Virus record (IMG/VR): IMGVR_UViG_3300003629_000001
Length of the DNA stretch: 64,000 nucleotides
Direction: 5' to 3' (one strand)
From: a virus
Shown: one piece after another, positions 3 through 64,000 of the stretch
Numbering within the stretch: the stretch's first letter is position 1
How the letters are laid out: each line of letters starts with the position of its first letter
The notes under the pieces: generated by a model
Seen by the model: only the letters and a program-made list of their open reading frames with translations
Told to the model about the DNA's origin: nothing
Databases searched by the model: none
Translations under genes and position numbers: made by a program

Positions 3-1652
3 GAAGAGACGGTCGCTCGTCTCGGCATGACCATGAGCGAGGAAGAGAAGGAAGACCCCGAAGCGTGGATTCGGGCGTTTGGTGATAGCGTTACTGAAGA
101 AGCCAACCAGAACTTCCAAGACGCTCTGGACGAGCGGATTCGTGAACGGACGGTTTCGACTGACAAGTACCGGGGTGGTGTCGTTGTTCCGAACGAGGTG
201 ACGACGGAACAGGTGAGAGAGGCTATGGGAGCGACGATGGACGCCGAGACGGTAGAATGGCTGTCCGGGGCTATGGAAAACAGCCCCGCCGTAGACGGGA
301 ACGACCCCGACTCATGGGTACGGGCGGCTCTCACACAGATTGGTGACGATAGCGAACAACGTACCGAGTTCCAGAACCAGTTCGACGTTTCCGCCGCTGT
401 ATCCGAAGAGGGTGACGGCGACGTTGGGACTGTCACCATGTCGGGTGGCGGTGAGAGTATCGAAATGCCGACGAACACCAGCGCTGAAGAGGCACGGGCC
501 GCTGTCGAAGAGACGCTGGGTCAGGACTTTCTCACCCACACAGCGGGCTTCATGGAAGACCAAGGCGCGGACGTAGAAGACCCGAAGCAGTGGGTCATGA
601 ACGGGCTGACGCTCTCTCAAATCGCCAACCCGGAAGGCTTCGAGACGACTGTCAGCGAAATGCAAGACAGTCTGATTGAAACCAACGAGGAACCCGAAGA
701 GAGCCGGGCGACTCAAGTCGTGACGGAACACGACGCCGAGGGTGACTGGCAATCATTCGTAGACCCAGTGACCGACCTGCTGGAAGAGGGCGAGAGCGCT
801 GGCGACATTGTTCAGAGTCTCAAAGAAGACGCCGAAATCGACGGCCACCCGCTTCAAGACGAGCAAATTCGGACACTCGCGTTCGAGGCTCACAAGGAAG
901 CCAGCGAGCGGAATCCGCCCGGTGTAGACGAGACACCGGACACGCCGTCGCTCGCTATGGACTGGGGTAACGAGTTCCCTGAAGCCATGCGCGACCGTAT
1001 GCAAGAGAACCACCCCGAAGCCTACGAGCAACTGAACGAGTCCTTTGAACCGTGGTCAGACGACCCCCACAGCGAGGAAATGAACTCGTTCTGGAACTAC
1101 GCGGTTCAGCACAGTGGGAACGGGAACATTCCCGAAATGGAAGGCCGCCCGGAGAACGTCACGCAAGAAGAGGTAGAGGCCGTACAACGGCTACACGAAG
1201 TGACACAGGATACGCTCACCGAACTCTACGGGGACACCGTACCGCTCTTCCGTCCGGTGGGTGGAAGCGCCGCGAGTGAACTCAAAAACGCAAAGGAGAG
1301 CGACGAAGACGACGATATTCAGTTCACCCACCGCCCGGCTGAATCGTGGTCGGGCGACATTGAGCAAATCGCGCAACGGACAGACTTTGAAGACGGTGAA
1401 TCGGTTGTCATTCGACGCGAAGTACCTACGGAAGACGTACTGGCGTCGTCTGTTACCGGGTCGCCGGGACTGGACGCACAAGACAACGAGTTCGTCGTCT
1501 CGTCGCCAACAGAGACGGAGTACAAACGAGGTGACGTGTTGACTGGCGACGACCTGAAAGACCCACAGGCAACGATGGAACAGGCGGCGTGGGCGAATAA
1601 GACCACTGGCGGGACGGAGCAAACGGAAGCAAACGAGGAAGGTGGAGAGTAA
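3..1652 (+). CDS. Head-associated effector protein, 5'-truncated, with C-terminal ADP-ribosyltransferase-like domain
   Basis: Frame is open from position 3, so the gene probably starts upstream. The C-terminus shows the ART R-S-E pattern: VPLFRPVG ... PAESWSGD ... VVIRREVPTEDVL ... DNEFVV. It resembles the two ART-like domains in 4400..9226. Confidence 0.6.
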   Translation, partial: EETVARLGMTMSEEEKEDPEAWIRAFGDSVTEEANQNFQDALDERIRERTVSTDKYRGGVVVPNEVTTEQVREAMGATMDAETVEWLSGAMENSPAVDGNDPDSWVRAALTQIGDDSEQRTEFQNQFDVSAAVSEEGDGDVGTVTMSGGGESIEMPTNTSAEEARAAVEETLGQDFLTHTAGFMEDQGADVEDPKQWVMNGLTLSQIANPEGFETTVSEMQDSLIETNEEPEESRATQVVTEHDAEGDWQSFVDPVTDLLEEGESAGDIVQSLKEDAEIDGHPLQDEQIRTLAFEAHKEASERNPPGVDETPDTPSLAMDWGNEFPEAMRDRMQENHPEAYEQLNESFEPWSDDPHSEEMNSFWNYAVQHSGNGNIPEMEGRPENVTQEEVEAVQRLHEVTQDTLTELYGDTVPLFRPVGGSAASELKNAKESDEDDDIQFTHRPAESWSGDIEQIAQRTDFEDGESVVIRREVPTEDVLASSVTGSPGLDAQDNEFVVSSPTETEYKRGDVLTGDDLKDPQATMEQAAWANKTTGGTEQTEANEEGGE

Positions 1653-3394
1653 TGGTGAAAATCGACGCGTCGGAGTACGAGACGAACTGGCTCACTGACA
1701 GTCCCGAAAAGGAAGGTCAGCCGAACGACGACGAGGAAGTGGCGGAGTCTGACAGTACCCCTACTGAAGAAAATCAGGCCCAGCAAGCCACGAAGGCGCT
1801 CAAGTCCGCTTTGGATTCTACCTTCGAGAAAGACGAGTGGATTCCCTATGAAGGGCCGGAAGGTGGTGAGGGGTGGCAAAATACTCAAGACCCGGACGAT
1901 ATTCGATATGGACTTGACGAACCGCCGGGTGAAGTAGCCGATGGGTACGAAGAGCAAGCGGAAGACTGGGGTGAGAGCAACGAGGAAGACAACGAAGACG
2001 GCGGTTCAGAACTCGGGAACTTCCTTGACGAACTCAGTCATACAGAGGCCAAAGAACCAATTGAACAGGATATACACTCGGTAGCGTCGGATACCGATAC
2101 CAGCCCCGAAGAGGTTGCTGGTCGCCTTCACGACCGACTTGAGCAACGCCAAGACCGAATCGGGAATTTAGACCAAGCCAACACCGAGCAATTTTCCGGG
2201 TTGGCGAACTCTATGCTCGAAAACATCGGGGAAGAGATAATCGAAGAGCGTAACCGAGATGAGTTGACGGAAGCGGTCGAAGGATACGACGAACTCACCT
2301 CTACGAAGGTCACGAATCATTACATCGACAGTGCGGTCGAACAGGTTCAGGAATCGACTGACTGGGGACGTGACGAACTTCGCCAAGACCTACTATCGCA
2401 CCTCGGAGAAGAGGGCGTTGACCCCGAAATCGCGCTGGACGAAGAGGAAGGGTTGGAAGAGTGGGCTGAAGCCAAAATTCAAGAAGCCGAGGAAGGCGCT
2501 GACGCTCCGTCTGACGTTCCTGACGGCTGGGGGAAACCCGAGGAAGTGACGTTCGGAGAATGGACGGAGTTCGAGCAAGGTGACGCCCAGTTCCTCGAAC
2601 ACGGTGATAGGGTTACTGGTACTCGCAACGGCGACGAGTTCGAGGGAACGGTTCGACACACTCCCGAAGACGGACTGGTCGGTATCGAAATGGACGAAGG
2701 TCACGTTCAGACAGTCGAAACGTGGGATATAGACCAGTACCAGAGTCAAGACCGTGACTTGGACGAGACACGCGACGAACTCCGTGACCACTTCAGCAAT
2801 ATCAGCCAGCACAACCAGTCGCTACAAGAGTACACGGGCCAAGCCCACCGAGAAATCAACGGCCATATGCGAGATACCGCGAAAGAGGTAGAAGCGGACT
2901 CGAAGGGGAAACTCGAACACGCTATTATGGCTACTGCTGACGCTGATACCGCTCGGGTAATCAGCGACGTGCAAGCGGCGACAAAACAGACACTCCCCCG
3001 AGAAATGAACGTCGCTCGGGGTATCGACGTGGACGCTGGGTCGTTCATGGACAAGGCTGAAGAGGCTATGGAATCGGGCGGAGCGCTCATGGACGAAGGC
3101 TTCCAAAGCGCGACGATTGACCGAGACGTGGCGGAAGGCTTCGGCAACATCACACTGGACATTCAGACCGACCACGGCGTCTACGCACGGGCCGCCAGCG
3201 AGTTCGCTGGGGAAGACGAAGTGCTACTCCCCGCCGGGACGCAATACGAGGTGAAAGACGTTGACAGGGAGAACAACACCGTCAGCGTCGAAGCCTACGG
3301 CGGATTCAGTTTCAACGTGGACGTGGGCCACGTTCGGGAACTGATTCACGAAGAGGGAATGTCCTACGAAGAGGCAATGGAATATGTCAGATAG
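1652..3394 (+). CDS. Head-associated effector: WIPYxGP tag plus C-terminal VIP2/Alt-like ADP-ribosyltransferase
   Basis: LQEYTG..HREINGHMR, NVARGI, GFQSAT and GEDEVLLPAGTQYEV match VIP2-type ART motifs. The repeated tag lies at ~1830-1980. Confidence 0.8.
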   Translation: MVKIDASEYETNWLTDSPEKEGQPNDDEEVAESDSTPTEENQAQQATKALKSALDSTFEKDEWIPYEGPEGGEGWQNTQDPDDIRYGLDEPPGEVADGYEEQAEDWGESNEEDNEDGGSELGNFLDELSHTEAKEPIEQDIHSVASDTDTSPEEVAGRLHDRLEQRQDRIGNLDQANTEQFSGLANSMLENIGEEIIEERNRDELTEAVEGYDELTSTKVTNHYIDSAVEQVQESTDWGRDELRQDLLSHLGEEGVDPEIALDEEEGLEEWAEAKIQEAEEGADAPSDVPDGWGKPEEVTFGEWTEFEQGDAQFLEHGDRVTGTRNGDEFEGTVRHTPEDGLVGIEMDEGHVQTVETWDIDQYQSQDRDLDETRDELRDHFSNISQHNQSLQEYTGQAHREINGHMRDTAKEVEADSKGKLEHAIMATADADTARVISDVQAATKQTLPREMNVARGIDVDAGSFMDKAEEAMESGGALMDEGFQSATIDRDVAEGFGNITLDIQTDHGVYARAASEFAGEDEVLLPAGTQYEVKDVDRENNTVSVEAYGGFSFNVDVGHVRELIHEEGMSYEEAMEYVR

Positions 3395-4400: not shown

Positions 4401-7400
4401 TGGCTGTCGTTATCGAAGAGTTCGACATAGGAGATATGTCGTGGTCTACCCTCGGTCGCATTGAAGATGGGGAAATTGTGGCCGACGGCGACGGGTTCCT
4501 TTCCGAACTCCTTTCTGACGACGAACTCGGTGACGAAGACGAACTACTGAATCGGTTCAACGGCCCGCGTCTTGTCGCCTATCGTGATAGGGGTACTCTC
4601 GGGAAAAACTGGATTCCGTATCAAGGGCCGATGGGTGGCGAGGGGTGGCAAAACGCGAACGACCCTGACGATATTCGCTACGTAGACGACCCACCCGGAG
4701 AAATCGAAGAGGGGTACGAGGAACAGGCGGAAGGGTGGGGTGAGAGTGACCAAGAGCGTTTTGTCAACGCTGTGGAAGAAGAATACGGAGTTTTCGCCAG
4801 TTCCCTCGCCAACGCGTTCACCGAAGAGACGGTTCTGAAAGACCCCTACGATTCGGGCTACGTAAAACTCGCCGCGAAGGTGGTCTTTGGTGAAAATTAC
4901 CCGGACGAGTCGGTTGCGGAATACTACGAAGAGTTTCGAGAACTCACGAATCTGGATACCATTCAGACGCCGCGAGAAGCGACGATGGACGTTATAGCGG
5001 CAATTGACGAACTCGAACCCACCAAGTCGCAAAAGAATCAGGCACTTGACGCGTTGCGTGACCGGTACAATATCATGCAATCCGCTGACGGGTTGCCTCA
5101 AGTACCGCTGGAAGACAAGGGGCCAAGGGACTGGAAAGAACACGTCCCCGGTCGTGGCGAAGATTACGACTGGGGGACAGTGAACACGCAAGACGCTGTT
5201 CTCTATCAAACCGAAGACGGCCTCATGAATGGCCGAATCTGGAAGTATGAGGGCGAAGACGACCAAGACGTACTCTACACACTGGAAAACGGCGAGACTC
5301 TGTATCACGAAGAGATTGAGGCGTTCTACCCCAACGAGAAAGAAGCGCTCCGGGTCGGTTCAAACGCTCGCGTTTCCGAGGGCAACTTCCTCACTTTCGA
5401 GATTGACGGAACCCCGTATCAAGGAGAAGTATCGACAATTGCGGCGCGTGACGGTCAAAGAGTCGAAGCACTGATTTCGACGCCGGGGGCTATGGTTCGA
5501 CTTTCATCTACTACTGAAGAAGGCCGTGACCCACAACTTGAGTCCGTTCAGGGTGACGACATAGAAATCATCGAACGACAACGAACCCTTCCTGACGATT
5601 TTGAGGGAATGGCGGAAGGCGTCAATCGGGAAGCGGACGCGGTTGCACGCGACATTACGGATAATCTCGGTGACGAGTGGCATAGAAGTATGTCGCTTGA
5701 GCGAGACGTGCAAAATGAGTTAGAGAAATACTTCTCTTCGACCGCTGTCAGTCAGTTTTACGAAGCCGTCAACGACTGGAAACAGGACGCTTCAAGTGGC
5801 CTCTCCGGCCTTCACGCGTCGTCTTTCCAAGAAGCGCTGGATATACACAGCCCCGCTCGCGGGTGGGACGAACCCAGCAAAGAGAACGTTCAGGTAGCGA
5901 AGGTCATGTACGAAGTGAGTCAGGAATACCTGAAAAAGACTCACGGAAGTAGCGTTCGCTTACACCGAGGAATGTCTAACACCGGATTCCGTCGGTTGAT
6001 GGACACATGGTTAGAGAACCCGAACGCTGACGAATACGACTTGAGTCAAATGGCGTTGAACAACTATACGCCACAGGTGGGTATTGCTGAAGGATTCGCA
6101 CACGATACGGCTGTCGTCACCAGTCGTGTCAGTACAGACAATATCGCGTTCGCTATGGACGCCCTCGCCGCTCGCTCAATGGACAACGAAGGCGAGGTTC
6201 ACGTCATGGGCGACGGTATGACGGTTGACCACAGCGATATTGCGTTCGGTGAACACCGAATCGAACTTGACGAGTTCCCCGACGGCTGGTCGCTTGAAGA
6301 GCATGAAGACATGGTGGAACAACTCAAGCACCACTACGCTGGTCGAATGCCGCTTCCGAAAGAAAGCCACGAAGAAATCTTCCAGAAGTGGGCGGAATCA
6401 GTCAAAGAGAACCACCCCGAACTGGTCGAAGGCCCGAATCCCAACCCCGAGATACAAGAACTCGTCAAGACAATCGAAACTGACGCATTCCTACAGTACG
6501 AGGTTCGACAAGGGCCACAGACCCAACTGGACGAGTTCGAGGATAAGCAGGACTCGAACCCAGTTATCGACCTAACTGACGACGCGTCCGCTCGGTGGTC
6601 GGCCTATGACCCCGCCGAGATTCCCGACACAGTGAAAGAGACGAAATGGAACCAGTACCGGAACTGGCAACAGAGTCTACAGGAGAAATCCAGTAGCCCC
6701 ATTGGAAAAGCGTGGATTCCCTACGAAGGCCCGCGAGGTGGGGAAGGTTGGCAAAGTGCGAACGACCCGAACAAAGTCGTCTACCAGCAAGAGCCGCCGG
6801 GGGAAGTGGCCGACGAGTACGACGCCGACCACTGGGAAGAGTATCCGAGTGACGGTAACTGGCCCGAATCGCCACACGGAACGCCGTGGGAACAGCCACA
6901 GGGCTTCGGACGAGACGCGGGTATGCAACTCACCGACGCGGTGGCGTTTATCAACTACGACGACGAGGTAGTGGCTGGCGAAATTGCGGAGTTCAACGAC
7001 GACGAGAAGACGTACAAACTCGAAAATGGCTACGTAATCAGCCACAGTCAGGTCGTCGGCTGGTCGCAACCGCCCGAAGGTGAGCGCGTCGAAACGTCTG
7101 TTGGTATGGTTACTGAAGGCGACTGGATTACCTACGACACGTCCTACAGCGAAGACCACGTTGCACAGATTTCCGACATAGAAATCAACGACGACAAAGA
7201 CATTATCTCGGTCGTTGGGGAACACGGTTATTACGAGATTGAGGTGTCCGGGCGTCCGAACAACCGCAACGAGTTCAACGCTAAAGTTCAGCGTATCCAC
7301 ACCGAGGAACCCGACCTGTTCGAGAACGTCGAACAGAATGGCATGGCTATGGAAACCGACGATATTGTCGGTGAAATGAGCGAGCGAATCGACCTGAAAG

Positions 7401-9226
7401 ACACCATGCACCAGAGCGACCAACTCAAGCAAGAGCAACGCGAGAATATCCGAAACACGCTTGAGACATACTTCCCTGAACAGTACGTCAACGCGTACTA
7501 CGGGTCTATAGAGTCGTGGAAGGTCAACAACGCGGCTGGAAGTGCTGAAGAACACGAAACGGCGTTCAAGGAAGCACTGGGTATCGAATCGCCGTCGCAC
7601 GCTGAAGCACTACACGACAAAGAGCCGTCTACAGCGGCGAAGGCACACCAGAAGATAGCGAAGGTCATGGCTGACCTCTCTGACGAATACTGGGAAGCAA
7701 ACTTCGGTGGCCGCGCCGAGGTACATCGTGGTATCTCGAACACGGCATTCGAGAATCTATTCCCCCAGTGGCTTGAGACACCCAACGCGACGAAGTACAA
7801 CGTCAAGCAACTCGCTCTGAACAACTTCAGCCGGAGTCGGCATACGGCCAACGGATTCGGGGAACGTACTGCTGTCGTAACGCTGGACGCCGACAAGGAC
7901 GACGTGGTGCTATGCACAGACGCGATTAGTAATATCGGTACTGTGCAAGACGAAGCCGAAATTCAGATTCATGGTGACGACCAATCGGTTGACGCACGCG
8001 GTATCGACCTGTTTGGGAAAGATGGGCCGACGCTGGGCGAACACCCTTCGGAGTGGGAGAAGGGCGAACACGTAGAGTTCGGTCAATTTCTGACCGGCTA
8101 CTATATGCGGAAAACAGACGACGTGGAAGAAGGCGAAGCGCCGATTCCCGAAAAGCACTACAAGACGCTTCTTGAGTGGACGCGAGCGCTGACCGAAACG
8201 TATCCTGACTTGGCACGTCGTCAGCCCACTCTCAATAGCCTTACCAGAGAGATTGAGCAAGACGCCGATACCTACTTCGGACTCGGCCCGCTCGGAAAGC
8301 AGTACACCGGTACGTTCACCGAAGAGACGACTGACAGCACGGAATATCCTACTATCGACTTGACTGACGAAGCGTCCGCGACATGGCTCTCTGACGCCAG
8401 TCAGAAACCCGAGCGAGAAGACATTTCACCCCAGCTATTCGAGCAACTGGTCGAAGCCAATCGCAAACGCCGAGAATCTATCAATACGGATACTGACGAA
8501 AGTGACACTGGCCCCATGCGGTTGAAGGGCCGTGTGGAAGTAGGGGCATTGAACAAACCGGACTGGAATCCGGTCAAGGACAGCACCCTTCAGAAAGCGA
8601 GTGACAACTTCCTGAAAGTTGACGACCTGCTACTGGACGCGTGGGAAAAACAAGTGTGCGCGGATTCGATTGAGAAAGCACCCGAAATGTGGCAACGGGG
8701 AGATAACGTCCCTCAATTCGTCCGCACGTTCGTCGCACAGGCCGCGACCAAACGAGACGCCCTGTGGGACGAATACAACGACGTGCCGCACATGGCGGCG
8801 CTGAAAGTCCATGAGATAATCAAGGACAACGTGACGAGCGACGGGTGGTCTATCAAAACCATAGCGGACGACCTGACTGACGAGTTCGAGGGTATCAGTA
8901 AGCGCCAAGCCGAAACAATTGCTCGCACCGAGGTAGCCGCTGTGCTAAACGACGCACGGGCTATGGCGTACAAGTCGTCGGATTACGACCTTCAATTTTA
9001 CTGGTCAGGGCCACAGGACGAACACACGACTGATATTTGCACCGAGGTAAAGCAAGAAATAGAGAATCGTGGTGGCTACGTCAGTATGGATACTCTGAAG
9101 AAAATTCTTCGAGAGAAAGCCCGGAAGCACCGCGACGACGGTGGGACGCCGGAGAGAGTGTCAAGTTATTTACCACATTTCAACTGTAGACACACGTTAG
9201 TTAGAAGCGAGTTCCGCTGGACGTAG
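4400..9226 (+). CDS. Large minor head protein: two tandem [tag + ART-like] units and a C-terminal MuF (SPP1 gp7-like) domain
   Basis: MuF motifs AETIARTE, FYWSGPQDEHTTDIC and PHFNCRH. The duplicated ART-like units read VRLHRG..ALNNYT..NEGEVHV and AEVHRG..ALNNFS..DEAEIQI. Tags start at ~4601 and ~6701. Confidence 0.8.
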   Translation: MAVVIEEFDIGDMSWSTLGRIEDGEIVADGDGFLSELLSDDELGDEDELLNRFNGPRLVAYRDRGTLGKNWIPYQGPMGGEGWQNANDPDDIRYVDDPPGEIEEGYEEQAEGWGESDQERFVNAVEEEYGVFASSLANAFTEETVLKDPYDSGYVKLAAKVVFGENYPDESVAEYYEEFRELTNLDTIQTPREATMDVIAAIDELEPTKSQKNQALDALRDRYNIMQSADGLPQVPLEDKGPRDWKEHVPGRGEDYDWGTVNTQDAVLYQTEDGLMNGRIWKYEGEDDQDVLYTLENGETLYHEEIEAFYPNEKEALRVGSNARVSEGNFLTFEIDGTPYQGEVSTIAARDGQRVEALISTPGAMVRLSSTTEEGRDPQLESVQGDDIEIIERQRTLPDDFEGMAEGVNREADAVARDITDNLGDEWHRSMSLERDVQNELEKYFSSTAVSQFYEAVNDWKQDASSGLSGLHASSFQEALDIHSPARGWDEPSKENVQVAKVMYEVSQEYLKKTHGSSVRLHRGMSNTGFRRLMDTWLENPNADEYDLSQMALNNYTPQVGIAEGFAHDTAVVTSRVSTDNIAFAMDALAARSMDNEGEVHVMGDGMTVDHSDIAFGEHRIELDEFPDGWSLEEHEDMVEQLKHHYAGRMPLPKESHEEIFQKWAESVKENHPELVEGPNPNPEIQELVKTIETDAFLQYEVRQGPQTQLDEFEDKQDSNPVIDLTDDASARWSAYDPAEIPDTVKETKWNQYRNWQQSLQEKSSSPIGKAWIPYEGPRGGEGWQSANDPNKVVYQQEPPGEVADEYDADHWEEYPSDGNWPESPHGTPWEQPQGFGRDAGMQLTDAVAFINYDDEVVAGEIAEFNDDEKTYKLENGYVISHSQVVGWSQPPEGERVETSVGMVTEGDWITYDTSYSEDHVAQISDIEINDDKDIISVVGEHGYYEIEVSGRPNNRNEFNAKVQRIHTEEPDLFENVEQNGMAMETDDIVGEMSERIDLKDTMHQSDQLKQEQRENIRNTLETYFPEQYVNAYYGSIESWKVNNAAGSAEEHETAFKEALGIESPSHAEALHDKEPSTAAKAHQKIAKVMADLSDEYWEANFGGRAEVHRGISNTAFENLFPQWLETPNATKYNVKQLALNNFSRSRHTANGFGERTAVVTLDADKDDVVLCTDAISNIGTVQDEAEIQIHGDDQSVDARGIDLFGKDGPTLGEHPSEWEKGEHVEFGQFLTGYYMRKTDDVEEGEAPIPEKHYKTLLEWTRALTETYPDLARRQPTLNSLTREIEQDADTYFGLGPLGKQYTGTFTEETTDSTEYPTIDLTDEASATWLSDASQKPEREDISPQLFEQLVEANRKRRESINTDTDESDTGPMRLKGRVEVGALNKPDWNPVKDSTLQKASDNFLKVDDLLLDAWEKQVCADSIEKAPEMWQRGDNVPQFVRTFVAQAATKRDALWDEYNDVPHMAALKVHEIIKDNVTSDGWSIKTIADDLTDEFEGISKRQAETIARTEVAAVLNDARAMAYKSSDYDLQFYWSGPQDEHTTDICTEVKQEIENRGGYVSMDTLKKILREKARKHRDDGGTPERVSSYLPHFNCRHTLVRSEFRWT

Positions 9227-11453: not shown

Positions 11454-11519
11454 TTTTTCTTACCGCAACCATTTGCACCAATACGCCTAATAGCGGAAGC
11501 GCTATTCTGGTTGACTACC

Positions 11520-11560
11520 CATTCCCGTATAGGGGAAGACTTATGTTGATAGGGGTACTA
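11520..11560 (+). promoter_or_regulatory. Promoter with palindrome TTCCC-GTATAG-GGGAA, GACTTAT TATA-like box and a TGATA-GGGG-TACTA site
   Basis: A near-identical element lies at 59581-59605. It sits ~40 nt upstream of the ATG at 11584. Confidence 0.55.
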
Positions 11561-12435: not shown

Positions 12436-12750
12436 TGCGGGTCGTTCTTTTCTATCGCACGCGTGGCTGTCTGTACCCCTATTGGTACGTACAGGATTTT
12501 GTAGACGGCTATGGTGTTGAAATGATTCGGTGCAAGAAATATGGGATTAAGAGCGAGGAAATTGAAGAGACGGCGACTCTCAAGAAGGATACGGAAGAAA
12601 TGTTCCTCGTTGCCACCGACGACGTGGAAAAGTCACTGTGTACGAAATATCTCTGGAAAGACTAATCATATTCTATTTTCCGATGATTTTATAACCCTAT
12701 AGAATCTGATTCAATTCAGGCGGAGCGCCCGCCACACCTACCACCCAACA

Positions 12751-13044
12751 ATGAACGACTTGACTGGATTCCAGCGTGACCTTCTCCGTGTTGCCGCTGG
12801 ACTTGACAAACCGAAAGGACTCGAAATCAAAGAGAAACTGGAATCGTACTACAATAGCGAAATCAACCACGGGCGTCTGTACCCGAATCTGGATACTCTG
12901 GTCGAAAAAGGGCTTCTTGAAAAAGGTCAGCACGACGAGCGGTCGAATGCGTACAAGGTGACGCGTCGGGGGAACCGCGAACTCAAAGACCGCGACGAGT
13001 GGAACGAGTCAGTGCGCGAAGTGACCGAAACCACCGCCGCGTAA
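12751..13044 (+). CDS. PadR-family transcription regulator (haloarchaeal type)
   Basis: MNDLTGFQRDLL...EINHGRLYPNLDTLVEKGLLEKG..D.RSNAY.VT.RG is the typical haloarchaeal PadR-like sequence. Confidence 0.9.
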   Translation: MNDLTGFQRDLLRVAAGLDKPKGLEIKEKLESYYNSEINHGRLYPNLDTLVEKGLLEKGQHDERSNAYKVTRRGNRELKDRDEWNESVREVTETTAA

Positions 13045-13208
13045 GACAACGATAGTCGATTTTTTGCCGCTTATTCTGAAATGGACGAGCGTCAGCCACA
13101 CCATTTTCCGTTAACCACCTCTCTCATTACCCATATTGGGCTTTGTAGTAGGGGTATTAGCAGAACCTTTTTAGTGAACACTATGAAACTATTGGACAGA
13201 GCCGACAT

Positions 13209-18274: not shown

Positions 18275-18321
18275 CCAACCGAGATTTTAGGCGGCGTGGC
18301 TGACAATAGGGATAATAACGC

Positions 18322-19984: not shown

Positions 19985-20030
19985 ATAATCTACTTAACAG
20001 TAGAACGGCTAATACCCCTAATATCAAACT

Positions 20031-21044: not shown

Positions 21045-21086
21045 AACACCAATAGCCCTATCAGGCTTCACAATAACCATAATAAC

Positions 21087-28489: not shown

Positions 28490-28543
28490 ACTCTATGATA
28501 AGGTTATTGTGAGCGCCATATAATTCTTCGCTCGTAAAACGGC

Positions 28544-39185: not shown

Positions 39186-39186
39186 T

Positions 39187-48628: not shown

Positions 48629-48940
48629 ATGACTGAACTACGAGACTTACAACACGAAGCGTGGATGATAGCCGAAGAGAGTGGTTTCCATGAAGGCGAC
48701 GAAGCCGGGGAAGACGCTCGGAGTCGGGCGAAGATACTCGCTCTGATTCACTCCGAAATCTCCGAAGCACTCGAAGCGGACAGGGAAGGCGACGACGAGA
48801 ACTACCGGGAAGAACTTGCTGATACGGTTATCAGGATTCTTGACCACGCCGAGACGGAAGGTATCGACCTGACCGAAGAGATAGAAGCAAAGTTCGAGGT
48901 GAACCGCGACCGGGAGTTCAAGCACGGGAAGCAATACTAA
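48629..48940 (+). CDS. MazG-like NTP pyrophosphohydrolase
   Basis: LIHSEISEALEA...EELADTVIRILD...K...N..R..KHGK. Confidence 0.85.
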   Translation: MTELRDLQHEAWMIAEESGFHEGDEAGEDARSRAKILALIHSEISEALEADREGDDENYREELADTVIRILDHAETEGIDLTEEIEAKFEVNRDREFKHGKQY

Positions 48941-50039
48941 TGGACGAACTCTCAATCACGGAACTGGACGACAAGGAAGGCGTCGTCTACGTTCTCGGTA
49001 TCGCTCACAAAGCCCCCGAGTCCGTTCGGAAGTGGTTCTACGGCGACGAGTTCCGAAATGCCTTCCTCAAGCGATTCGACCATGCTGAAATGCTTCGTGT
49101 TCCGGGCGCGGTTGGAACAGTCGAAGTGACTGAAACGTCGAAGCAAGAACTCGAAGAGTTGTTAGACCTATGAGCGTTCGTCCGAACTACGGTCAGCGAC
49201 GGATTCACGTCACGCCCGAAGTGATAGAAGCGTGGCTGGTCAACGAGAACCGGGTGACGGCTAACTTACCGGACGACGCCCGTTTCGTTCGGATGTACGC
49301 TCGTGACCGTGGTGGGTACTACCTCGTCTTCGAGAGTACCGAGTGGGACGAACTCGCTGAAGGCGAGAATATCCCGAAGGAGAGCGTCACGGTCGAACGA
49401 GCGAATACGAGAGTCACAATTCAAAAATGACTGATACGGATAATCTGACGACAGTTCCGTGTGGCTGTGGCGATTTCAGTATAGAGGTGTCGAATACCTC
49501 TGTCGTCAACAAGTTCGACGTGGTGTGTCCCGAGTGCGACAACCACTTTGGGTGGCGAGAGAAATCGGGGAAATACAACTTCCTCGAAGAACTGTCCGCC
49601 CTCGAACACCGTCAGTGGATTCACTGGACGAAAGCGCTGGCGAAGCGCGAAGACCTTCCTGACGGACTCGTAGAGCGCTGGGAAGAGAACTGGATTCCCT
49701 ACGGGGAACTCGAAGACGACGTGAAAGAGCAAGACCGCGAGTGGGCGCGTAAAGCCCTCAAAATCATGAAAGGTAATCACGAATGAGAGGTTTCGGTGAC
49801 GCTATTCAGTTGGCACAGAAAGAAGCGGAACGGCGTTTCCCCGAGGGGGAGTACACCCTTCAAACGCTACAGTGGTGCGACGGCGACTACCGAATCACTG
49901 TCCGAAACGGGTTTAGCATGACCGAGGAAGAGAACTCACTACAGAAAGAAATCGTCGTGACGCCGCACCAAGCGAAGGTGCAACTTCGAGAGACTACCCA
50001 GTCGGAAGAGTATAGCGTCCACGACGAAGAGGTGCTACA

Positions 50040-51290
50040 ATGAGCGAAGAGTCGTGGGTAGAGAAGTACAGACCCGAGGTGTGGGGTGACATTCAGGGGA
50101 ACAATAGTGACCTTGACGACCTGAAAGACTGGTGTCGTAATTTCACTCCCGGCGATACGCCGCAATTGTTAGTCGGGACGCAAGGCACTGGGAAGACCAG
50201 CACAGCGAACGTAATCGCCAACAAGATGGATTGGCCGATGAATCAGACCAACGCCAGTGACAAGCGCTCTTCGGAAGATATAGCGCGACTGGCGGCGTCT
50301 ATCTACACCACGCCACCGGACGCGGAGTTCCAACTGGTGCTGATTGACGAGATAGACAGTCAGTCGTCTCGCACTAACAAGCGTCCGTTGTACGACGCGC
50401 TGGACTCTCCGAATAACCCTGTTATCATTACGGCGAACGACGAGTACGATATTCCACAGGGTATCAAGAGTCGCTGTAAGATTCGGGAGTTTAAACTGTC
50501 GAAGGCGTCGAAGGCGGCTAAACTGAAAGACATAGCCGAAGCCGAGGGCATTCGAGACGAAATGTCCGACGCTGACCTTGAAGACCTATCCGAGCGGGCT
50601 GACCTTCGCTCCGCGATTCAGGATATGCAAACGTGGGCGAAGCAGGATATTCCGCCGGGTCAGGACGAACGTGACGTGGAAATCGGTGAGTTCGAGGTTA
50701 TGGATAATATCATGCGAGGGACGAAGGAAGCGGGTCAGGTCAGCCCGCCCGATTTGGTCATGTGGCTTGACGAGAACCTTCGCAAAGAGTTCCGGGGCGT
50801 CGAAGCGCTCACCGCCTACGACACGCTCGCCAACGCCGACAAGTGGCTCGCACGCGCCCAGCAGGAAGACTATCGGTTCTGGAAGTACGCTGGGGAATTG
50901 GCCGAACAGACGGCGACACAGCGCGTGACAGAGCCTTACGACGGCTGGATGGACAAGGACTTTCCCGAGTGGTTCCGGCACAAGCAACCCAACGCGCACG
51001 GGGAGAAGCCCGAAGCGCGGCTGTACCGGAAACTTAAGGACTGGGAAGGCGGTTCTTTCCAGTTCGCCGGGGACTACACCCACTTCCTGAACGTGGTGCT
51101 ACCCCTACTCGAAGACCTACCGCTGGACGAGCGCCGTCAAATGGTGTTAGAATTGAGCCTTGACGACGGCGAAATGGAAGCGCTGGGTGTCAGTCCGAAG
51201 CGCTATAAGAAGTGGGCACAGTCGGACGTACCAGCCGAGCGCCAGCAGAACGAAGCGGAACTACAGACGACGGACGTGCTGGACTACTAA
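50040..51290 (+). CDS. rfcL: Replication factor C large subunit
   Basis: WVEKYRP, GTQGTGKTS, NASDKR, LIDEID, DLRSAI.D and WLDEN. Confidence 0.9.
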   Translation: MSEESWVEKYRPEVWGDIQGNNSDLDDLKDWCRNFTPGDTPQLLVGTQGTGKTSTANVIANKMDWPMNQTNASDKRSSEDIARLAASIYTTPPDAEFQLVLIDEIDSQSSRTNKRPLYDALDSPNNPVIITANDEYDIPQGIKSRCKIREFKLSKASKAAKLKDIAEAEGIRDEMSDADLEDLSERADLRSAIQDMQTWAKQDIPPGQDERDVEIGEFEVMDNIMRGTKEAGQVSPPDLVMWLDENLRKEFRGVEALTAYDTLANADKWLARAQQEDYRFWKYAGELAEQTATQRVTEPYDGWMDKDFPEWFRHKQPNAHGEKPEARLYRKLKDWEGGSFQFAGDYTHFLNVVLPLLEDLPLDERRQMVLELSLDDGEMEALGVSPKRYKKWAQSDVPAERQQNEAELQTTDVLDY

Positions 51291-53271: not shown

Positions 53272-53580
53272 ATGACCGTCGTTAGTATCCGCTGTCAAGA
53301 GTGCGACGAGGTGAAGCGTGAAGAGAAAATGGCTGGTATTCAGGTGTGCAAGGAGTGTTCGGGCGGCGACACCCCGGACTCACCCGAGGAAGACGACGAC
53401 GCTAACTCCGAAGACGGGTCAGTTAGCAATGGAGGTGGCGTCAGCGAGGAAGAAATCACCGAGGAATCTGACAGTACCCCTACTGACGACGCTGACACCG
53501 ACGAAACGACGGACAGCGCCGAAAGAGACAAGAAGCCGCTTGAAGAATCATTTAACGAGCAAGACCCGCTCGAATGGTAA
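53272..53580 (+). CDS. Zn-finger protein with acidic linker and C-terminal DPLEW motif
   Basis: CQEC...CKEC. Confidence 0.7.
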   Translation: MTVVSIRCQECDEVKREEKMAGIQVCKECSGGDTPDSPEEDDDANSEDGSVSNGGGVSEEEITEESDSTPTDDADTDETTDSAERDKKPLEESFNEQDPLEW

Positions 53581-54161: not shown

Positions 54162-54807
54162 ACCCCAAACGCTTTGCGCGTCGGAATAAGATTATACAAC
54201 TATGGTAGACGTTGGGTCGTTCGACATTTCAGTACACGCGCTCCTTCTCAAGTCTGACCAGTACGAAATACTGGTCGAAGCGAGAGAAGTGATGTACGGT
54301 GACAGGGCCAGTGAAGTGTCGCTGGCTTCTGTGATAGCCCTACTGGCACAGGAAGAGGTAGCGCGAAACAAGGACACGGACACTGACGCACTCATGGACG
54401 GCGTAACCGAGAGCGACGTTCCCTACGACGTAGACGAGGAATACCCACGATGATTACTACAGCCATGTATATGTACGGTGTCATTGTTGGTTACAGTCAA
54501 CCCGGCCCGGAGATAGGAATGTTTCTTTTCTTCGATATGAGTATGGCCGCTGTTCTTTCCTCATCGTAATGATTACGCTCTCAATCGACATGACCGAGGA
54601 ACAGGCCGAGGAAATGGTTGCGTCGATTCAGGACGCACTCGAAGAAGACGAACCGTGGACACCGGAACTCACGTTCCAACCCGAAGACGCCGAAAACATC
54701 CAAAAGAACCTGAAGTTTCAGGTTCGCCACAGCGACCACTACTACGAGAATTTATAGTAGCAGAGGTTTTATAACCTTCTACAACCAATTTCTTCCCGAG
54801 ATAAGAA

Positions 54808-55407: not shown

Positions 55408-55787
55408 GTCTACCAGTCGGGTTGGGTGGACTCGTTGATACTGACGAACTCAAGCCCCCACAGGGTCGCAATACGCAAGGCCCGACTGGTTCGAGAGAGT
55501 TCACGACGCTCATGAACCAAATCAACGGAGAAGGGAAGAGCGAGCGCGTGGACTTGAGCATAGGTGGCTACGTCACAATATCCCTATCACCGTACAACTG
55601 GACGCTTTACGATTGCGAGTATCAGCACGACCCGACTATTGAAGAGAATATCGCTCGCGCCGAGTTCGTTGACGCCGGTGGTCACTCCGAAGCGGTTCTT
55701 CTAATTGACATAGAGAGCGGGGAAGTGGTGTCCGTACAGGTAAATCGTCGGGGCGAACACATGGTCGGTACATATAGTGGCCCATGA
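55404..55787 (+). CDS. IGG-motif protein 1
   Basis: VDLSIGGYVTISL; ATGA-coupled. Confidence 0.65.
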   Translation: MSLPVGLGGLVDTDELKPPQGRNTQGPTGSREFTTLMNQINGEGKSERVDLSIGGYVTISLSPYNWTLYDCEYQHDPTIEENIARAEFVDAGGHSEAVLLIDIESGEVVSVQVNRRGEHMVGTYSGP

Positions 55788-56984: not shown

Positions 56985-57008
56985 TGGGTTTCGCACCTTC
57001 CCCAATTC

Positions 57009-57081: not shown

Positions 57082-57137
57082 TTTTCTAATACGGGTATCA
57101 GCCAACTTATTTAGCCTCGGCGCTACCAGTATGGGTA

Positions 57138-57641
57138 ATGACAAGGTACGAAGTGGCCGGTGACTCCTTCCGAAGTACCTCGTCTGTCATTCGGAAGACG
57201 AAGCCACCGTTCTTCGAGGAAGCCGACACAGACTCCGAGTTCGGGGTCGATTTCGGTATCACGCCGGACTACGCCAACGACCAGTTCGACGTAGACGGTG
57301 GGTACGCTCGAATGTATGATGGGTCGGCGGCGTGGCACGGCTTCTACGAAGCAACCAATACCCTTACTCTCGAAGCCCCGTCCGGGGTCAACTACCTCTA
57401 CGCTGTGTACGACAATACACAGAACAGTCTCGAATACGAGGTGCTGTCTTCGGATTCGCCCACTGGGTCGATTACTGTTAAACTGGCTGAAATCGACGCG
57501 GGCGCTCAAGAAGTAACGAAGGTCAACACCGACCCCAACGTCTCGGTTCCCTCTCAAGGATTCCGTGATAGTTCGGGTGTTCGACAACAGACGATTCAGT
57601 ACGACGAAGAACTCCGTTCTCTGGTTGTGATTAAAGAATGA
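57138..57641 (+). CDS. Putative virion fibre/adaptor protein
   Basis: Beta-rich; ITPDY..DQFDVDGGYA, VNYLYAVYD and LAEID resemble tail-fibre N-terminal domains. Confidence 0.4.
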   Translation: MTRYEVAGDSFRSTSSVIRKTKPPFFEEADTDSEFGVDFGITPDYANDQFDVDGGYARMYDGSAAWHGFYEATNTLTLEAPSGVNYLYAVYDNTQNSLEYEVLSSDSPTGSITVKLAEIDAGAQEVTKVNTDPNVSVPSQGFRDSSGVRQQTIQYDEELRSLVVIKE

Positions 57642-59002
57642 GTGACGCATACGAACTCGGTACAGCAGAAACGTTCGACAAATACAGTACCCCATACAAT
57701 GTTCTGAAGACGGGGAAACAGACGGTTCAGTTTTCCCACGACCCGTCCAAGTCTCTCACAAAGCGTCGGTATGGGTATTACTCGAATAACGCGTTTTTCG
57801 ACGCAACGAATATAGCGTCGAACGAACCAAGTGGAACAATCACAATCTCTACAACAGCGACCGGGACAGATACCGCACGCATTCGTTCTGCTATTGCTGG
57901 ACAGTACGTCAGTCAAACGCTGGCGAAGCCGGGTGTCGGTCTTGACGTAGATAGTGCGAATATCAATTACGACGCTGACGGATACGTGTCTACCTCGCAC
58001 GGCCAAATCGCTGTTGGGGCTGGTTGGCACGACGGGTCTTCGGGTGGCTGGGGTGCGGCTGAAAACGGCGGCCCGATTCAGACGTTCCTTGGTCGGGTTT
58101 ACACTCCCACAGGCGCGGAAGCGGTCTGTATTTCGGACGGGAATCACGTTCACGGGAGTCCGGTTCCGCAACCCCAGTGGAATCTGGACGACTTGAGTGG
58201 GCAAGACGACGCTGATAACCCCAGCGGTGTCCAACTCCGTCCTGACGACGGTGTAATCAACAACTTCCCCTATACATGGTATGCGTTCGGAGCGCTCTTC
58301 GACGGGATTGTCCCACCCGAGGAAGACGAAGAGGTTCTGTCCCACAAGTTCGTTCCTGACAGTTCCAGTCTTGACCGATCGAATCTGACCCCTATGGTCA
58401 TTCTGGACAATGACGGAACGGCGACCGCTATGAGCGCTGAACTCGGTGGAATGCAATTCTCGGTCTACGGAGCGGACATTAAAGGCGGCGAAGGCGGCGA
58501 AGACCGTGGCACTGAAATGACTCGTCTGACTGGTACGAACGCCAATGGGTTCATTTCCGATACTGTCGTGGTCAACAACGAATCAATCGACGTGAATGCC
58601 GAACCCGGTAAGCCAGCACTGGCTGTCAAGCGAGAAACTGGTGTCCGTGACGTTGCGTTCCGCATTGAAGAACTGGGTGTCGAACCCGATACTAACGTCT
58701 ATATCATTGCGTGGGACGAGTACGACCCGGCTACAGCACTTGACGGGACGTTCCGACAGCCGAACAAGCCGAGGAATACTGAAGAATCGCTTCTGGAAGT
58801 GAACACGACCTGTACGACCTATACGCCAACGCAAGCAGTTCAGCGTGGGTGGGACAAGGTGAAGGGTGCTAACGACGCTGATATTGCGCCAGTGTCTACG
58901 ACTGACGAGATTCCGATTGACGCTACTCGGGTCTACACGCTGGTCAACGACGGTTCGGCTGGTGACGCCGAGATACTTGTTCGGGGTATTGAAGGGTACT
59001 GA
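57638..59002 (+). CDS. Putative virion structural / receptor-binding protein
   Basis: 454 aa, T/G/S/N-rich beta-sandwich-like composition. Confidence 0.45.
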   Translation: MSDAYELGTAETFDKYSTPYNVLKTGKQTVQFSHDPSKSLTKRRYGYYSNNAFFDATNIASNEPSGTITISTTATGTDTARIRSAIAGQYVSQTLAKPGVGLDVDSANINYDADGYVSTSHGQIAVGAGWHDGSSGGWGAAENGGPIQTFLGRVYTPTGAEAVCISDGNHVHGSPVPQPQWNLDDLSGQDDADNPSGVQLRPDDGVINNFPYTWYAFGALFDGIVPPEEDEEVLSHKFVPDSSSLDRSNLTPMVILDNDGTATAMSAELGGMQFSVYGADIKGGEGGEDRGTEMTRLTGTNANGFISDTVVVNNESIDVNAEPGKPALAVKRETGVRDVAFRIEELGVEPDTNVYIIAWDEYDPATALDGTFRQPNKPRNTEESLLEVNTTCTTYTPTQAVQRGWDKVKGANDADIAPVSTTDEIPIDATRVYTLVNDGSAGDAEILVRGIEGY

Positions 59003-59389: not shown

Positions 59390-59580
59390 CATATGTGTCG
59401 GTTCGTGGGATTACCGCACACGTCACAAAGTGCGGACAAGCGGAGATACACTACGAGAACGAAATTCTAATACCCCTATCAGTCGGTGGCCGGGCTGAAA
59501 TCCAGTTCGAGAACATCGACCACAAAAACCTATGAAACAACACTATCTTCCGACACCACACGTCGCTTAACTGACGTAGC

Positions 59581-60427: not shown

Positions 60428-60891
60428 CCATGCTGGATTTCGAGTGGGAAGTGGGCAAAGGCGACAGTCCGTTCACGGAGATTTGTATTCAGTGTCCCAA
60501 CTGTGAGAAGCAGGGCGTTTACTACGAAACGAAGATTCAGGGACAGGTCTGTTGCGAGTGCAATAAAGAGTTCGAGGGTGTCGTAACTATGAAACTCGTC
60601 GTGACGGTGAAACGATGAACGATATGCCTGATTGGTGGGAACCCGGAATCAAAATCTATCACGAAACGAGGTGTCGAAACTGTGGGAAGGGTGACGGCAT
60701 GAAGAACCCGTTCGACCGAGAGGGTCGCTGTAGCGGCTGTAATTCTATGGCACGCGGCACGTTTCCCCGCGTTGTCGTGCGAAAATAGCGTGTGTTGAAG
60801 ATTGGCACGGGCGGAGTCATTATTAGGGCTACTGACAAAGAATTAGATGGATGGATTCACACCCAGCCGGTTCTTGCTTCGGTGGTAAAGA

Positions 60892-62760: not shown

Positions 62761-63375
62761 ATGACCCGACTCACACTTCACTGGCACTTACGAGGAATCG
62801 TAGAAGGGACGACTGTAGCCGAGTGCGTCCGCGTCGATTTAGACCACTACAGCGAGTGGTCAGAGCGCTGGTGGCCCGGACAGCGGTACTACACCGACCC
62901 CAACGTCGAAGGCTACGAGCAACACGAATCGCAATCCGCCGCTAACAGTTACACCACCGGCTTTCGTCAGGACTGTGGGGAGTTTTGTGACGCGTTCAGT
63001 ATCCGCGCTCACGAAGCGCTTCACGCTGACGACACGGTGAAGTATCTGGACGCGGTGGCCCACGACCCGACGAAGCGACACCAAGAGCGGTACGACGCCG
63101 CGCAACTCTTGGACTATCACATTTGGCCTGACTCGCCCGACGCTGGCTCTCTCGGTCGGGGGCTTCAGGCTGACCGTGACGACATAGATGTTCGAGAGTT
63201 CCTTGACGCTGGTATGGGACGCCGCTCGGTCGGGCCGACGTACATGGCTATGCGGTGTGTCAATCCCGAGTGTTCCGAAGGCGAGTGCCTGTGCGATTGG
63301 GATACGCTTCGAGACGAAAATCGGGCCGAGTGCATGGTCTGTGGCACGGAGCAACCACGACCACAGTATCCCTAA
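62761..63375 (+). CDS. Hypothetical protein with C-terminal Cys cluster
   Basis: CVNPEC...CMVC. Confidence 0.6.
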   Translation: MTRLTLHWHLRGIVEGTTVAECVRVDLDHYSEWSERWWPGQRYYTDPNVEGYEQHESQSAANSYTTGFRQDCGEFCDAFSIRAHEALHADDTVKYLDAVAHDPTKRHQERYDAAQLLDYHIWPDSPDAGSLGRGLQADRDDIDVREFLDAGMGRRSVGPTYMAMRCVNPECSEGECLCDWDTLRDENRAECMVCGTEQPRPQYP

Positions 63376-63644
63376 TGGAAATCGACACCAGTTGGTCGTA
63401 CACACAGGAAGCCTTCGCTTGTGCCTGTGTGGACGCCGGAGTGACGTTGGTTGATACTGGCGTCACGAATCCAGAAGGACACCGCCTCAAGCGTACCGTA
63501 GAAGACGTGTGTCCGTCCTGTGAGATACCATTCACTAAAATCTCGGAACACGACTATACGAAGGTTCTCGTCACGGTTCGTCGCTAACTCGCTTCTTCCA
63601 ATAACTTTATTAAACTATAGCCAAATCCTTTAATCGCATTCAAA

Positions 63645-64000
63645 ATGGCAAACGATACTGAACTAACGGGGAAGACGACCGCCGCTGTCGCTATGGTGGC
63701 GACGGTACTCGGCGTCGTTCTCCCCACGGCACTGACGGGAAGCATTCTCCCGCTCGTACTCGGCCTTGTCGGCATGGCCGCGTGTACGTATGCACTACTC
63801 GGAAAGGACTACGGAGTCTACGCGGCCCTCGCTGGCGTCCTACTGTTCTTCGTCGGCGGGTTCGCCTTCTGGTATCCGTGGTGGCAAGGAATCGCTTACG
63901 CGCTGGCGTTCAAGAATCCCGGTGGTCTTCAGTGGCTTGTCGTCGGTGTGCTGGCCGCTGTCGTGATAGCCCTACTGAAGCTCATGACTCGCACGGACGA
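63645..64000 (+). CDS. Multi-pass membrane protein, 3'-truncated, not in ORF track
   Basis: MANDTELTGKTTAAVAMVATVLGVVLP...; hydrophobic and open to the window end. Confidence 0.6.
   Translation, partial: MANDTELTGKTTAAVAMVATVLGVVLPTALTGSILPLVLGLVGMAACTYALLGKDYGVYAALAGVLLFFVGGFAFWYPWWQGIAYALAFKNPGGLQWLVVGVLAAVVIALLKLMTRTD

Follow-up and report, generated by a model that had tools for sequence, protein, structure and literature searches.

Noc–NBS, SlmA–SBS and MatP–matS are cellular systems in which palindromes of 12–16 bp, present in tens of copies at about one site per 50–100 kb, mark a replicon or a macrodomain for positioning. An archaeal partition system with a small palindrome-binding protein is AspA–ParB–ParA of the Sulfolobus plasmid pNOB8, with three components and one centromere; its site-specific winged-helix protein nucleates on the palindrome and spreads. 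Centromeres of type Ib partition systems usually lie upstream of parA, as repeats that overlap the par promoter, and the stoperators of Cluster A mycobacteriophages follow the direction of transcription and sit in short intergenic gaps. Plasmid RK2 carries a replicon-wide short palindrome (12 OB sites in ~60 kb, mostly near promoters), whose reader KorB acts with a ParA-type ATPase partner in partition and long-range silencing (PMC11790492). In omega/delta/parS of pSM19035 and ParG/ParF/parH of TP228, a Walker ParA precedes a small partner whose N-terminal tail is flexible. Omega recognises contiguous 7-bp heptads at six places, all of them promoters, so that arrayed sites also overlap promoters and one protein is both centromere binder and regulator (PMC9499535). 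Stoperators are asymmetric 13-bp sites that are read by a monomer and occur by the dozen, with silencing beyond the early promoters (PMC9283540, PMC6550527). Here we describe a 14-bp dyad, YRRTANNNNTAYYR (YRRTA-N4-TAYYR), that is dispersed over IMG/VR virus record IMGVR_UViG_3300003629_000001, a tailed haloarchaeal virus. The record has 110,711 bp and 54.4% G+C; the 64,000-nucleotide stretch that was analysed, its bases 28914–92913, is called the window, and positions are those of the window unless given as genome positions.

The main distinctions from the known systems are a density of about one site per kb, the location of three quarters of the sites within genes and the archaeal viral setting. 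The virus has ~105 sites in 111 kb, compared with the 12 of RK2, which is a bacterial plasmid. KorB is a ParB-family CTPase clamp, whereas ParB_N found no match in six frames of the virus at E ≤ 0.01, and Pfam found no ParB-like domain in the large proteins of the virion gene array. As in the omega-type systems, a ParA gene of the virus is followed by a gene for a small protein (128 aa). Omega and ParG have a ribbon-helix-helix (RHH) domain; that of the 128-aa protein is putative and comes from a structure model. Unlike the omega heptads, the site is a 14–20 bp dyad, mostly solitary and intragenic, and in contrast to type Ib systems the palindrome at the par promoter is a different one. Compared with stoperators, the differences are the two-fold half-sites and the location of most sites within genes. 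The Noc, SlmA and MatP systems are far sparser, and homologues of their readers were not detected here. By the features that define the KorB, omega and stoperator classes, the virus network falls outside all three. The literature that we searched contained nothing relevant on a dispersed palindrome or a ParA centromere in haloviruses.

The motif occurs 40 times in the window, where 1.34 copies are expected (maximum 4 in 100 dinucleotide-preserving shuffles); Markov nulls of order 1, 3 and 5 gave expectations of 1.1–3.1. Other spacers between 0 and 11 yield 0–11 copies in the window and at most 13 in the genome, compared with 77 for a spacer of 4. These 77 exact copies occupy every 5-kb bin of the genome. 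We refined the motif by iterating a symmetric weight matrix (20 bp, Y-NN-YRRTA-N-SS-N-TAYYR-NN-R). With a cut-off of 12 bits, this refined model found 105 sites in the genome, 56 of them in the window, and the scores were distributed bimodally. A first-pass annotation of the window, made by eye, had already proposed a dispersed palindrome, and the motif proved to be real. Of the 60 positions listed there, 32 are exact matches, 22 carry one mismatch and the other six carry two or three. The refined model gives 51 of them 12 bits or more, and eight exact matches had been overlooked (18672, 36779, 41852, 42095, 43067, 44104, 52292 and 63599). The same annotation had named a codon-preserving shuffle, Markov models and other spacer lengths as checks; the enrichment held throughout and was specific to spacer 4. 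It was also right about the scarcity of TA (observed/expected 0.71).

In the best intergenic copies, the dyad is extended to 22 bp (CTCACAGTA-N4-TACTGTGAG). Both arms belong to the half-site class YRRTA, and only the centre is polar. The G or C run noticed earlier in the spacer could be narrowed to the central two bases, which are GG/CC in 94 of 105 sites and GC/CG in the other 11. A GG/CC centre is anti-palindromic and hence gives each site a polarity. On the coding strand we counted 40 GG and 15 CC centres, a bias that could come from codon constraints. Watson-Crick pairs between the arms number 37, 58 and 40 at the three variable positions, compared with 47.5, 60.6 and 38.4 expected from independent arms, and the commonest arm combination, TGATA with TACTG, is unable to form a full stem. 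This absence of covariation speaks against an RNA or DNA hairpin and fits read-out by a protein. Likewise, two independent degenerate half-sites about one helical turn apart fit two protein subunits.

Most sites are located in coding sequence, at a density of about one per 1.2 kb. We observed 78 intragenic sites, compared with ~4 after synonymous-codon shuffling. When the codons of all open reading frames (ORFs) were shuffled synonymously and the intergenic DNA was left intact, the 105 weight-matrix sites dropped to 31, and 27 of these were the untouched intergenic sites. Among 71 sites in plus-strand ORFs, 57 begin at codon position 3, so that both TA steps span codon boundaries (NNT/ANN); this frame is the cheapest for the protein. 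Minor codons are frequent at the sites (AGG 13 times, with 4% of the genome's Arg codons; GAT 32 times; ACT 24 times), and the mean synonymous-usage fraction is 0.29 there versus 0.42 genome-wide. The use of unusual codons, remarked on in the first-pass annotation, is thereby confirmed for AGG, GAT, ACT, CCT and AGT. The encoded peptides are variable. Protein alignments with relatives that lack a given site are ungapped (at site 9082, with four such relatives), which indicates that the sites arose through substitution, amino-acid changes included, and not through insertion. The sites are maintained by selection on the DNA itself.

According to a rough gene call, 27–42 sites lie outside substantial ORFs. 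Of 42 such sites, 17 end no more than 30 bp upstream of a start codon (for example 18304, 20010, 21071, 28496, 28881 and 30111). Others contact promoter boxes: site 11547 directly follows a promoter-like block, and sites 13146 and 57087 directly precede a box resembling a B recognition element (BRE) and TATA element. Two tandem pairs, 13125/13146 and 21050/21071, are exactly 21 bp apart. Phased arrays sit in two non-coding stretches near the right genome end, outside the window; one has five cores exactly 26 bp apart (genome 107251–107355), and further groups have distances of 24–26 bp (107634/107658, 110134/110160 and 110353/110378/110402). Without this right-end cluster, the spacing is more even than random (coefficient of variation 0.69, largest gap 4.1 kb, Kolmogorov-Smirnov p 0.01), a regularity that had been suggested as worth checking. 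The earlier idea of selected sites for a dimeric protein thus stands as far as selection on the DNA, a dimer-site anatomy and the occurrence of single sites, pairs and phased arrays are concerned; that a protein binds them we infer from the sequence, and we regard this as likely.

The palindrome arrays alternate with members of a second repeat family (GCTCTCTAYGG / TCTCTATCG), giving a 52-bp unit (L002 14170–14470 and 17640–17760), and C-runs (CTACCCCCCG-like) are found at the extreme right genome end. The right-end repeat region may be a replication origin.

Conservation was assessed with three metagenomic relatives (L018, L038 and L039) of 87–92% DNA identity, in 42 site comparisons. All three retain most sites, and the motif is strongly enriched in each of them. 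Divergence rises from 3.0% at the four bases of the TA cores through 7.9% in YRR/YYR and 10.7% in the spacer to 13.6% in the 14-bp flanks, so that the conservation check proposed in the first-pass annotation came out in favour of the motif. Out of 43 site changes, 29 remain inside the motif class. At site 63964, for example, the spacer has gone from the CC to the GG form in L039, with three adjacent bases changed inside a gene and the motif kept. There is also some turnover, since a few intragenic sites are lost among the relatives (for example 20327).

Outside this group, the motif is restricted. A lineage with 72–75% capsid identity (L005, L009 and L019) has 4–6 sites where 0.07–0.6 are expected, at a lower density; one of them lies where the orthologue of gene 18322 begins. 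Two motif sites were counted in the 104 kb of the complete relative G002, and none in other lineages of this capsid family. The motif is therefore a trait of a sub-clade and not of the whole virus family. We looked for another dispersed palindrome in G002, but its only strong repeat is a promoter block with ~30 copies. In contrast, 18 sites (0.2 expected) are present in L037, of which 20 kb of a 113-kb contig were covered and which has another restriction-avoidance profile. Nine of its ten intragenic sites are in phase 2, and there is a non-coding array of ~12 sites; the second repeat (GCTCTCTAYGG / TCTCTATCG) recurs in this array region, too. A megablast query with 12 kb against a phage collection gave no match. 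Searches of viral contigs with the DUF6744 protein, ParA, PolB and a small-protein alignment, and of species genomes with that alignment, found no further relatives.

Only five genes are common to this virus and the 20 kb of L037. They encode an RFC-like protein, an AAA+ protein, an 86-aa protein, ParA and the 128-aa protein, the last two with 60–62% identity. G002 has no homologue of ParA or of the 128-aa protein. Moreover, in all seven loci with a homologue of the 128-aa protein that is at least 55% identical, a site is present in that gene or just ahead of it. The ParA-type ATPase is encoded at genome 94412–95284 (Pfam AAA_31 6.8e-21, CbiA, MipZ; 1.8e-22 in the six-frame search). In every locus found, down to 39% identity, the 128-aa gene directly follows the ParA gene and overlaps it. 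The family is small: at 50% identity it forms seven clusters in a set of 1.8 billion representative proteins. A structure model with a predicted local distance difference test score (pLDDT) of 60 gives the 128-aa protein an acidic disordered tail (residues 1–50), a strand (62–66) and two helices (70–86 and 93–103). The cluster nearest to its Atlas model is the CopG RHH group, with template-modelling (TM) scores of 0.52/0.67. This modelled order of tail, strand and helices corresponds to type Ib centromere-binding proteins such as omega and ParG (PMC9499535). A homodimer prediction for residues 48–128 scored 0.01, which counts neither for nor against binding.

We tentatively regard this ParA-coupled protein, on the grounds of gene content and sequence, as the leading candidate for the reader of the motif. 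The segregation role considered in the first-pass annotation gains circumstantial support from a ParA with an overlapping partner gene, from a motif that tracks this pair in the very divergent L037, and from the lack of both in the complete relative G002. The RHH proteins proposed there as binders did not fare as well, since ORFs 32688 and 39922 match no RHH or other DNA-binding family. The translation of ORF 39922–40236 is basic and rich in Leu, Thr and Ser, unlike the acidic proteins of the virus; probably there is no gene in that frame. Nothing specific was found in support of a packaging or self-marking role of the sites.

The reading that we favour, although we would put it slightly below an even chance, combines two functions, as KorB and omega do: a virus-encoded dimeric binder would use one network of sites as a centromere for ParA and as global operators. 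Each subunit would read one degenerate YRRTA half-site, and the two TA steps with the rigid GG/CC centre would probably shape the DNA. The reader could dock on single sites and bind cooperatively to pairs and arrays. The right-end arrays might then act as centromere or master operator, and the sites at promoters and start codons could repress or time transcription. Evenly spaced intragenic sites would serve as roadblocks, nucleation points or extra handles for ParA. Such a network could keep a large, non-integrated genome silent and inherited in a carrier or plasmid-like state. In a bolder version, which we consider rather unlikely, the whole 110-kb chromosome would be one distributed centromere and silencing platform, a "holocentric" viral genome. 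In this version the ParA-coupled small protein, as a member of an undescribed archaeal family distantly related to DUF7970, would dock at ~100 sites, and the virus would pay for the intragenic ones with rare codons and amino-acid changes. A large archaeal virus that does not integrate could then be partitioned and silenced in the manner of a plasmid.

Several observations weigh against the combined reading. Members of the 128-aa family with 39–46% identity are also encoded after ParA, yet their loci lack the motif, and we saw no replacement motif there. The site inside the 128-aa gene falls on a moderately conserved peptide, so that its persistence is partly due to the protein sequence. The link between motif and genes was scored on two motif-bearing lineages and one complete negative, with the partial third lineage (L005, L009 and L019) outside the ParA scoring. 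At this pLDDT, the fold prediction for the 128-aa protein is poor; the protein's best Z score against solved structures is 3.6, with the RHH N-domain of TraM among these matches, and it matches no Pfam family, RHH_1 included. Foldseek and VIA searches with the two low-confidence models (128-aa and 86-aa proteins) gave nothing above that Z score, and a profile search of solved structures returned chance-level matches only. Furthermore, the 96 bp upstream of parA are free of motif sites and contain another palindrome, perfect over 22 bp, and the motif arrays lie 12–15 kb downstream of parA. To our knowledge, no partition system needs ~100 sites. The 22-bp palindrome is probably the par operon's own operator. 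In L037, a conserved direct repeat (AGTAAAC / AAGTAAAC) occupies the same place upstream of parA.

The sites might instead be the operator and roadblock network of an ordinary viral repressor that is unrelated to ParA, namely PadR, the 86-aa protein or an unrecognised regulator. PadR proteins are dimers that read palindromes, and the tandem pair 13125/13146 sits 80 bp after the PadR gene, the only one recognised among ten candidate small proteins compared with PHROGs and Pfam. Many sites either separate a TATA-like box from a start codon or immediately precede a BRE/TATA-like box, and the par promoter is free of the motif. The 86-aa gene is a lesser candidate, being one of only five shared with L037 and absent from G002; however, its product has no recognisable DNA-binding fold, and its fold model is uninformative. 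Stoperators set a precedent for one repressor with dozens of sites across a phage genome (PMC9283540). However, a PadR homologue with 57% identity is encoded by the motif-less G002, so that PadR, although a real gene, loses ground as the binder that had been suggested. Three genes resembling winged helix-turn-helix (HTH) regulators (10041–12435) are absent from the motif-bearing 72% lineage within the stretches of it that were covered. Three quarters of the sites lie evenly spaced and deep in long ORFs, where promoter control would not need them. We consider a repressor network of this kind possible but on the whole unlikely.

Alternatively, an enzyme of the virus could mark or cut the viral DNA at the sites, by base modification for self-recognition or by site-specific nicks as in T5-like phages, perhaps through the HNH/HTH endonuclease encoded at 9241–9987. 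This would be in line with sites that are dispersed, evenly spaced and independent of genes. The virus is also under heavy restriction pressure, as its 110 kb contain two copies of CTAG (182 expected), one of GATC (288) and four of AGCT (353). The avoided words differ among relatives (L037 retains GATC and AGCT, L020 retains GATC), which suggests different hosts or restriction pressures. However, six-frame searches revealed no N6/N4, D12 or C5 methyltransferase, and the motif-less G002 also carries a homologue of the HNH gene. Methylase and nickase sites typically look different from such degenerate half-sites, and arrays phased at 24–26 bp and sites at gene starts suit operators better than modification targets. 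We therefore think that marking or nicking is quite improbable.

It is about as hard to see the sites as replication elements at which viral replication proteins load or initiate, with an origin marked by the arrays, and we rate this as similarly improbable. The arrays do share their non-coding regions with AT-rich stretches, C-strings and the second repeat family, a comparable region exists in L037, and the AAA+ and RFC-like proteins are shared with L037. But homologues of both proteins (43% and 49% identity, respectively) are present in the motif-less G002, sites 3–8 bp ahead of start codons would be left unexplained, and we know of no precedent for ~100 origins or loading sites inside genes. 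Finally, although the motif is nominally an inverted repeat and nearly all genes lie on one strand, hairpins (terminators, processing sites or REP-like elements) and a by-product of codon or peptide repeats are already contradicted by the arms and centre described above, the variable peptides, the loss of the signal in codon-preserving shuffles and the lack of insertions where sites arose.

How large archaeal viruses persist, control their genes and segregate within host cells is poorly understood. One word per kb, mostly inside genes and against codon preference, is a strong genome-wide constraint and points to a reader protein. If the 128-aa protein is that reader, this would be, within the literature searched, the first dispersed centromere and operator network in an archaeal virus, and it would give a small ParA-linked archaeal protein family its first function. 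The motif offers a practical way to recognise this virus group in brine metagenomes, and any recoding or engineering of these genomes would need to respect it. The positions of the sites and of the other features are listed in the table.

Table. Motif sites in the window and other features of the record. Bits are refined-model scores; L003, L018, L038 and L039 are relatives.
Feature	Position	Strand	Remarks
Motif site	83..96	.	in ORF, phase 2; 17.9 bits
Motif site	1753..1766	.	in ADP-ribosyltransferase (ART)-domain gene, phase 2; 21.9 bits
Motif site	2605..2618	.	in ORF, phase 2; 14.7 bits
Motif site	2923..2936	.	in ORF, phase 2; 15.8 bits
Motif site	4585..4598	.	in 1608-aa MuF-fusion ORF, phase 2; 14.5 bits
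Motif site	5653..5666	.	in 1608-aa MuF-fusion ORF, phase 2; 14.0 bits
Motif site	7102..7115	.	in 1608-aa MuF-fusion ORF, phase 2; 17.0 bits
Motif site	7930..7943	.	in 1608-aa MuF-fusion ORF, phase 2; 17.0 bits
Motif site	8233..8246	.	in 1608-aa MuF-fusion ORF, phase 2; 16.2 bits
Motif site	8482..8495	.	in 1608-aa MuF-fusion ORF, phase 2; 21.1 bits
Motif site	9082..9095	.	in 1608-aa MuF-fusion ORF, phase 2; 16.0 bits
Motif site	11479..11492	.	intergenic; 18.2 bits
Motif site	11547..11560	.	intergenic, touches promoter-like block, ends 15 bp before start 11575; 16.6 bits
Motif site	12471..12484	.	in small ORF 12435-12665, phase 0; 14.3 bits; L018 identical
Motif site, first of 21-bp tandem pair	13125..13138	.	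between PadR gene and capsid operon; 16.7 bits; L018 identical
Motif site, second of 21-bp tandem pair	13146..13159	.	touches BRE/TATA-like box; 20.0 bits
Motif site	14230..14243	.	in ORF, phase 2; 15.1 bits; kept in L018 with pyrimidine-to-pyrimidine change
Motif site	18304..18317	.	ends 5 bp before start 18322; 19.5 bits; L003 and L018 identical
Motif site	20010..20023	.	ends 8 bp before tail-tube start 20031; 17.9 bits; L003 and L018 identical
Motif site	20327..20340	.	in tail-tube ORF, phase 2; 16.0 bits; lost in L003 and L018
Motif site, first of 21-bp tandem pair	21050..21063	.	15.9 bits
Motif site, second of 21-bp tandem pair	21071..21084	.	ends 3 bp before start 21087; 16.3 bits
Motif site	21619..21632	.	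in ORF, phase 2; 17.0 bits
Motif site	24374..24387	.	in ORF, phase 2; 13.4 bits
Motif site	27275..27288	.	in ORF, phase 2; 16.6 bits
Motif site	28496..28509	.	7 bp from start of minus-strand gene 27584-28489; 15.7 bits
Motif site	28672..28685	.	in minus-strand ORF, phase 2; 15.5 bits
Motif site	28881..28894	.	5 bp from start of minus-strand gene 28544-28876; 20.3 bits
Motif site	29238..29251	.	in RadA gene (minus strand), phase 2; 15.4 bits
Motif site	30111..30124	.	divergent intergenic gap, 3 bp from RadA start; 17.5 bits
Motif site	31705..31718	.	in AAA_24 ORF 31214-32683, phase 2; 17.3 bits
Motif site	32975..32988	.	ORF boundary; 20.9 bits
Motif site	34394..34407	.	in ORF, phase 1; 16.1 bits
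Motif site	35496..35509	.	upstream of RFC-like gene; 17.3 bits
Motif site	38145..38158	.	in ORF, phase 2; 21.7 bits
Motif site	39183..39196	.	at stop of PD-(D/E)XK nuclease gene; 12.4 bits
Motif site	39686..39699	.	in small ORF; 16.8 bits
Motif site	41027..41040	.	in PolB gene, phase 2; 15.9 bits
Motif site	41852..41865	.	in PolB gene, phase 2; 19.2 bits
Motif site	43067..43080	.	in PolB gene, phase 2; 18.6 bits
Motif site	44104..44117	.	in ORF, phase 2; 18.4 bits
Motif site	44728..44741	.	in thymidylate kinase gene, phase 2; 16.6 bits
Motif site	45778..45791	.	in ORF, phase 2; 19.1 bits
Motif site	48820..48833	.	in MazG-like ORF, phase 2; 16.3 bits
Motif site	50696..50709	.	in AAA+ gene, phase 2; 12.7 bits
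Motif site	53472..53485	.	in ORF; 22.1 bits
Motif site	54332..54345	.	in small ORF; 18.0 bits; L038 identical
Motif site	55576..55589	.	in ORF; 16.2 bits; L038 and L039 identical
Motif site	57087..57100	.	6 bp after tRNA-Glu; 18.0 bits; L039: four changes, motif fit retained
Motif site	57127..57140	.	overlaps start 57138; 18.5 bits
Motif site	57356..57369	.	in ORF, phase 2; 12.5 bits
Motif site	57767..57780	.	in ORF, phase 0; 12.0 bits
Motif site	59468..59481	.	13.4 bits; L038 and L039 identical
Motif site	60821..60834	.	20.1 bits; kept in L038 and L039
Motif site	63364..63377	.	ORF boundary; 17.1 bits; L038 and L039 identical
Motif site	63964..63977	.	in 585-aa ORF upstream of ParA; 15.4 bits
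PadR-family winged-helix gene, candidate binder	12751..13044	+	Pfam PadR 1.6e-13; 80 bp upstream of tandem pair 13125/13146
86-aa gene, lesser candidate binder	49170..49430	+	61% identity over 72 aa in L037; absent from G002
128-aa partner gene, candidate reader	genome 95281-95667 (window-relative 66368-66754)		overlaps parA end by 4 nt
Perfect 22-bp palindrome TTACTCGTA-AGCC-TACGAGTAA	genome 94325-94346 (L002 1412-1433)		upstream of parA promoter; L038 identical
580-aa protein with ART domain (Pfam ADPrib_exo_Tox)	1652-3394		co-oriented gene array upstream of capsid genes
1608-aa protein ending in MuF-like domain	4400-9226		same co-oriented gene array
HNH endonuclease gene, two HTH modules and NUMOD3 motif	9241-9987		between MuF-fusion gene and capsid module
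tRNA-Asp(GTC)	56911-56985		
tRNA-Glu(TTC)	57009-57081		motif site begins 6 bp downstream
TTTATA-GGATTATAG / CTATAG repeat	~9990-10040, 12690-12720, 39860-39900, 47040-47070, 54740-54770		
TTTATA-GGATTATAG / CTATAG repeat, outside window	upstream of genome 94412; genome 104616/104680		

The record is ~93% ORF by the rough gene call, and CheckV rates it as 100% complete and linear. A 97%-related L038 scaffold (19484–20387) extends beyond its match to the last base of the record, into an HNH_3/HTH gene without a match to the record start, so that the record may not show the true ends or circular junction of the genome. The virion genes include those for an HK97-type capsid protein and a tail tube protein. 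In its MuF/portal-associated domain, the 1608-aa protein matches HCTV-1 and HVTV-1 with 46–49% identity, and the remaining giant proteins of the array (up to 2193 aa) match no Pfam family. Other encoded functions are RadA, an RFC-like protein, a PD-(D/E)XK nuclease, PolB, thymidylate kinase and RtcB. From its sequence modules, the HNH gene looks like a homing endonuclease gene. The two tRNAs are specific for Asp and Glu, the two most used amino acids in halophile proteins. A second promoter-like repeat, TTTATA-GGATTATAG / CTATAG, stands ahead of several genes and is distinct from the palindrome. It also differs from a GGGGAAGACTTA-type promoter block that we found at 11520–11546 and upstream of 59646.

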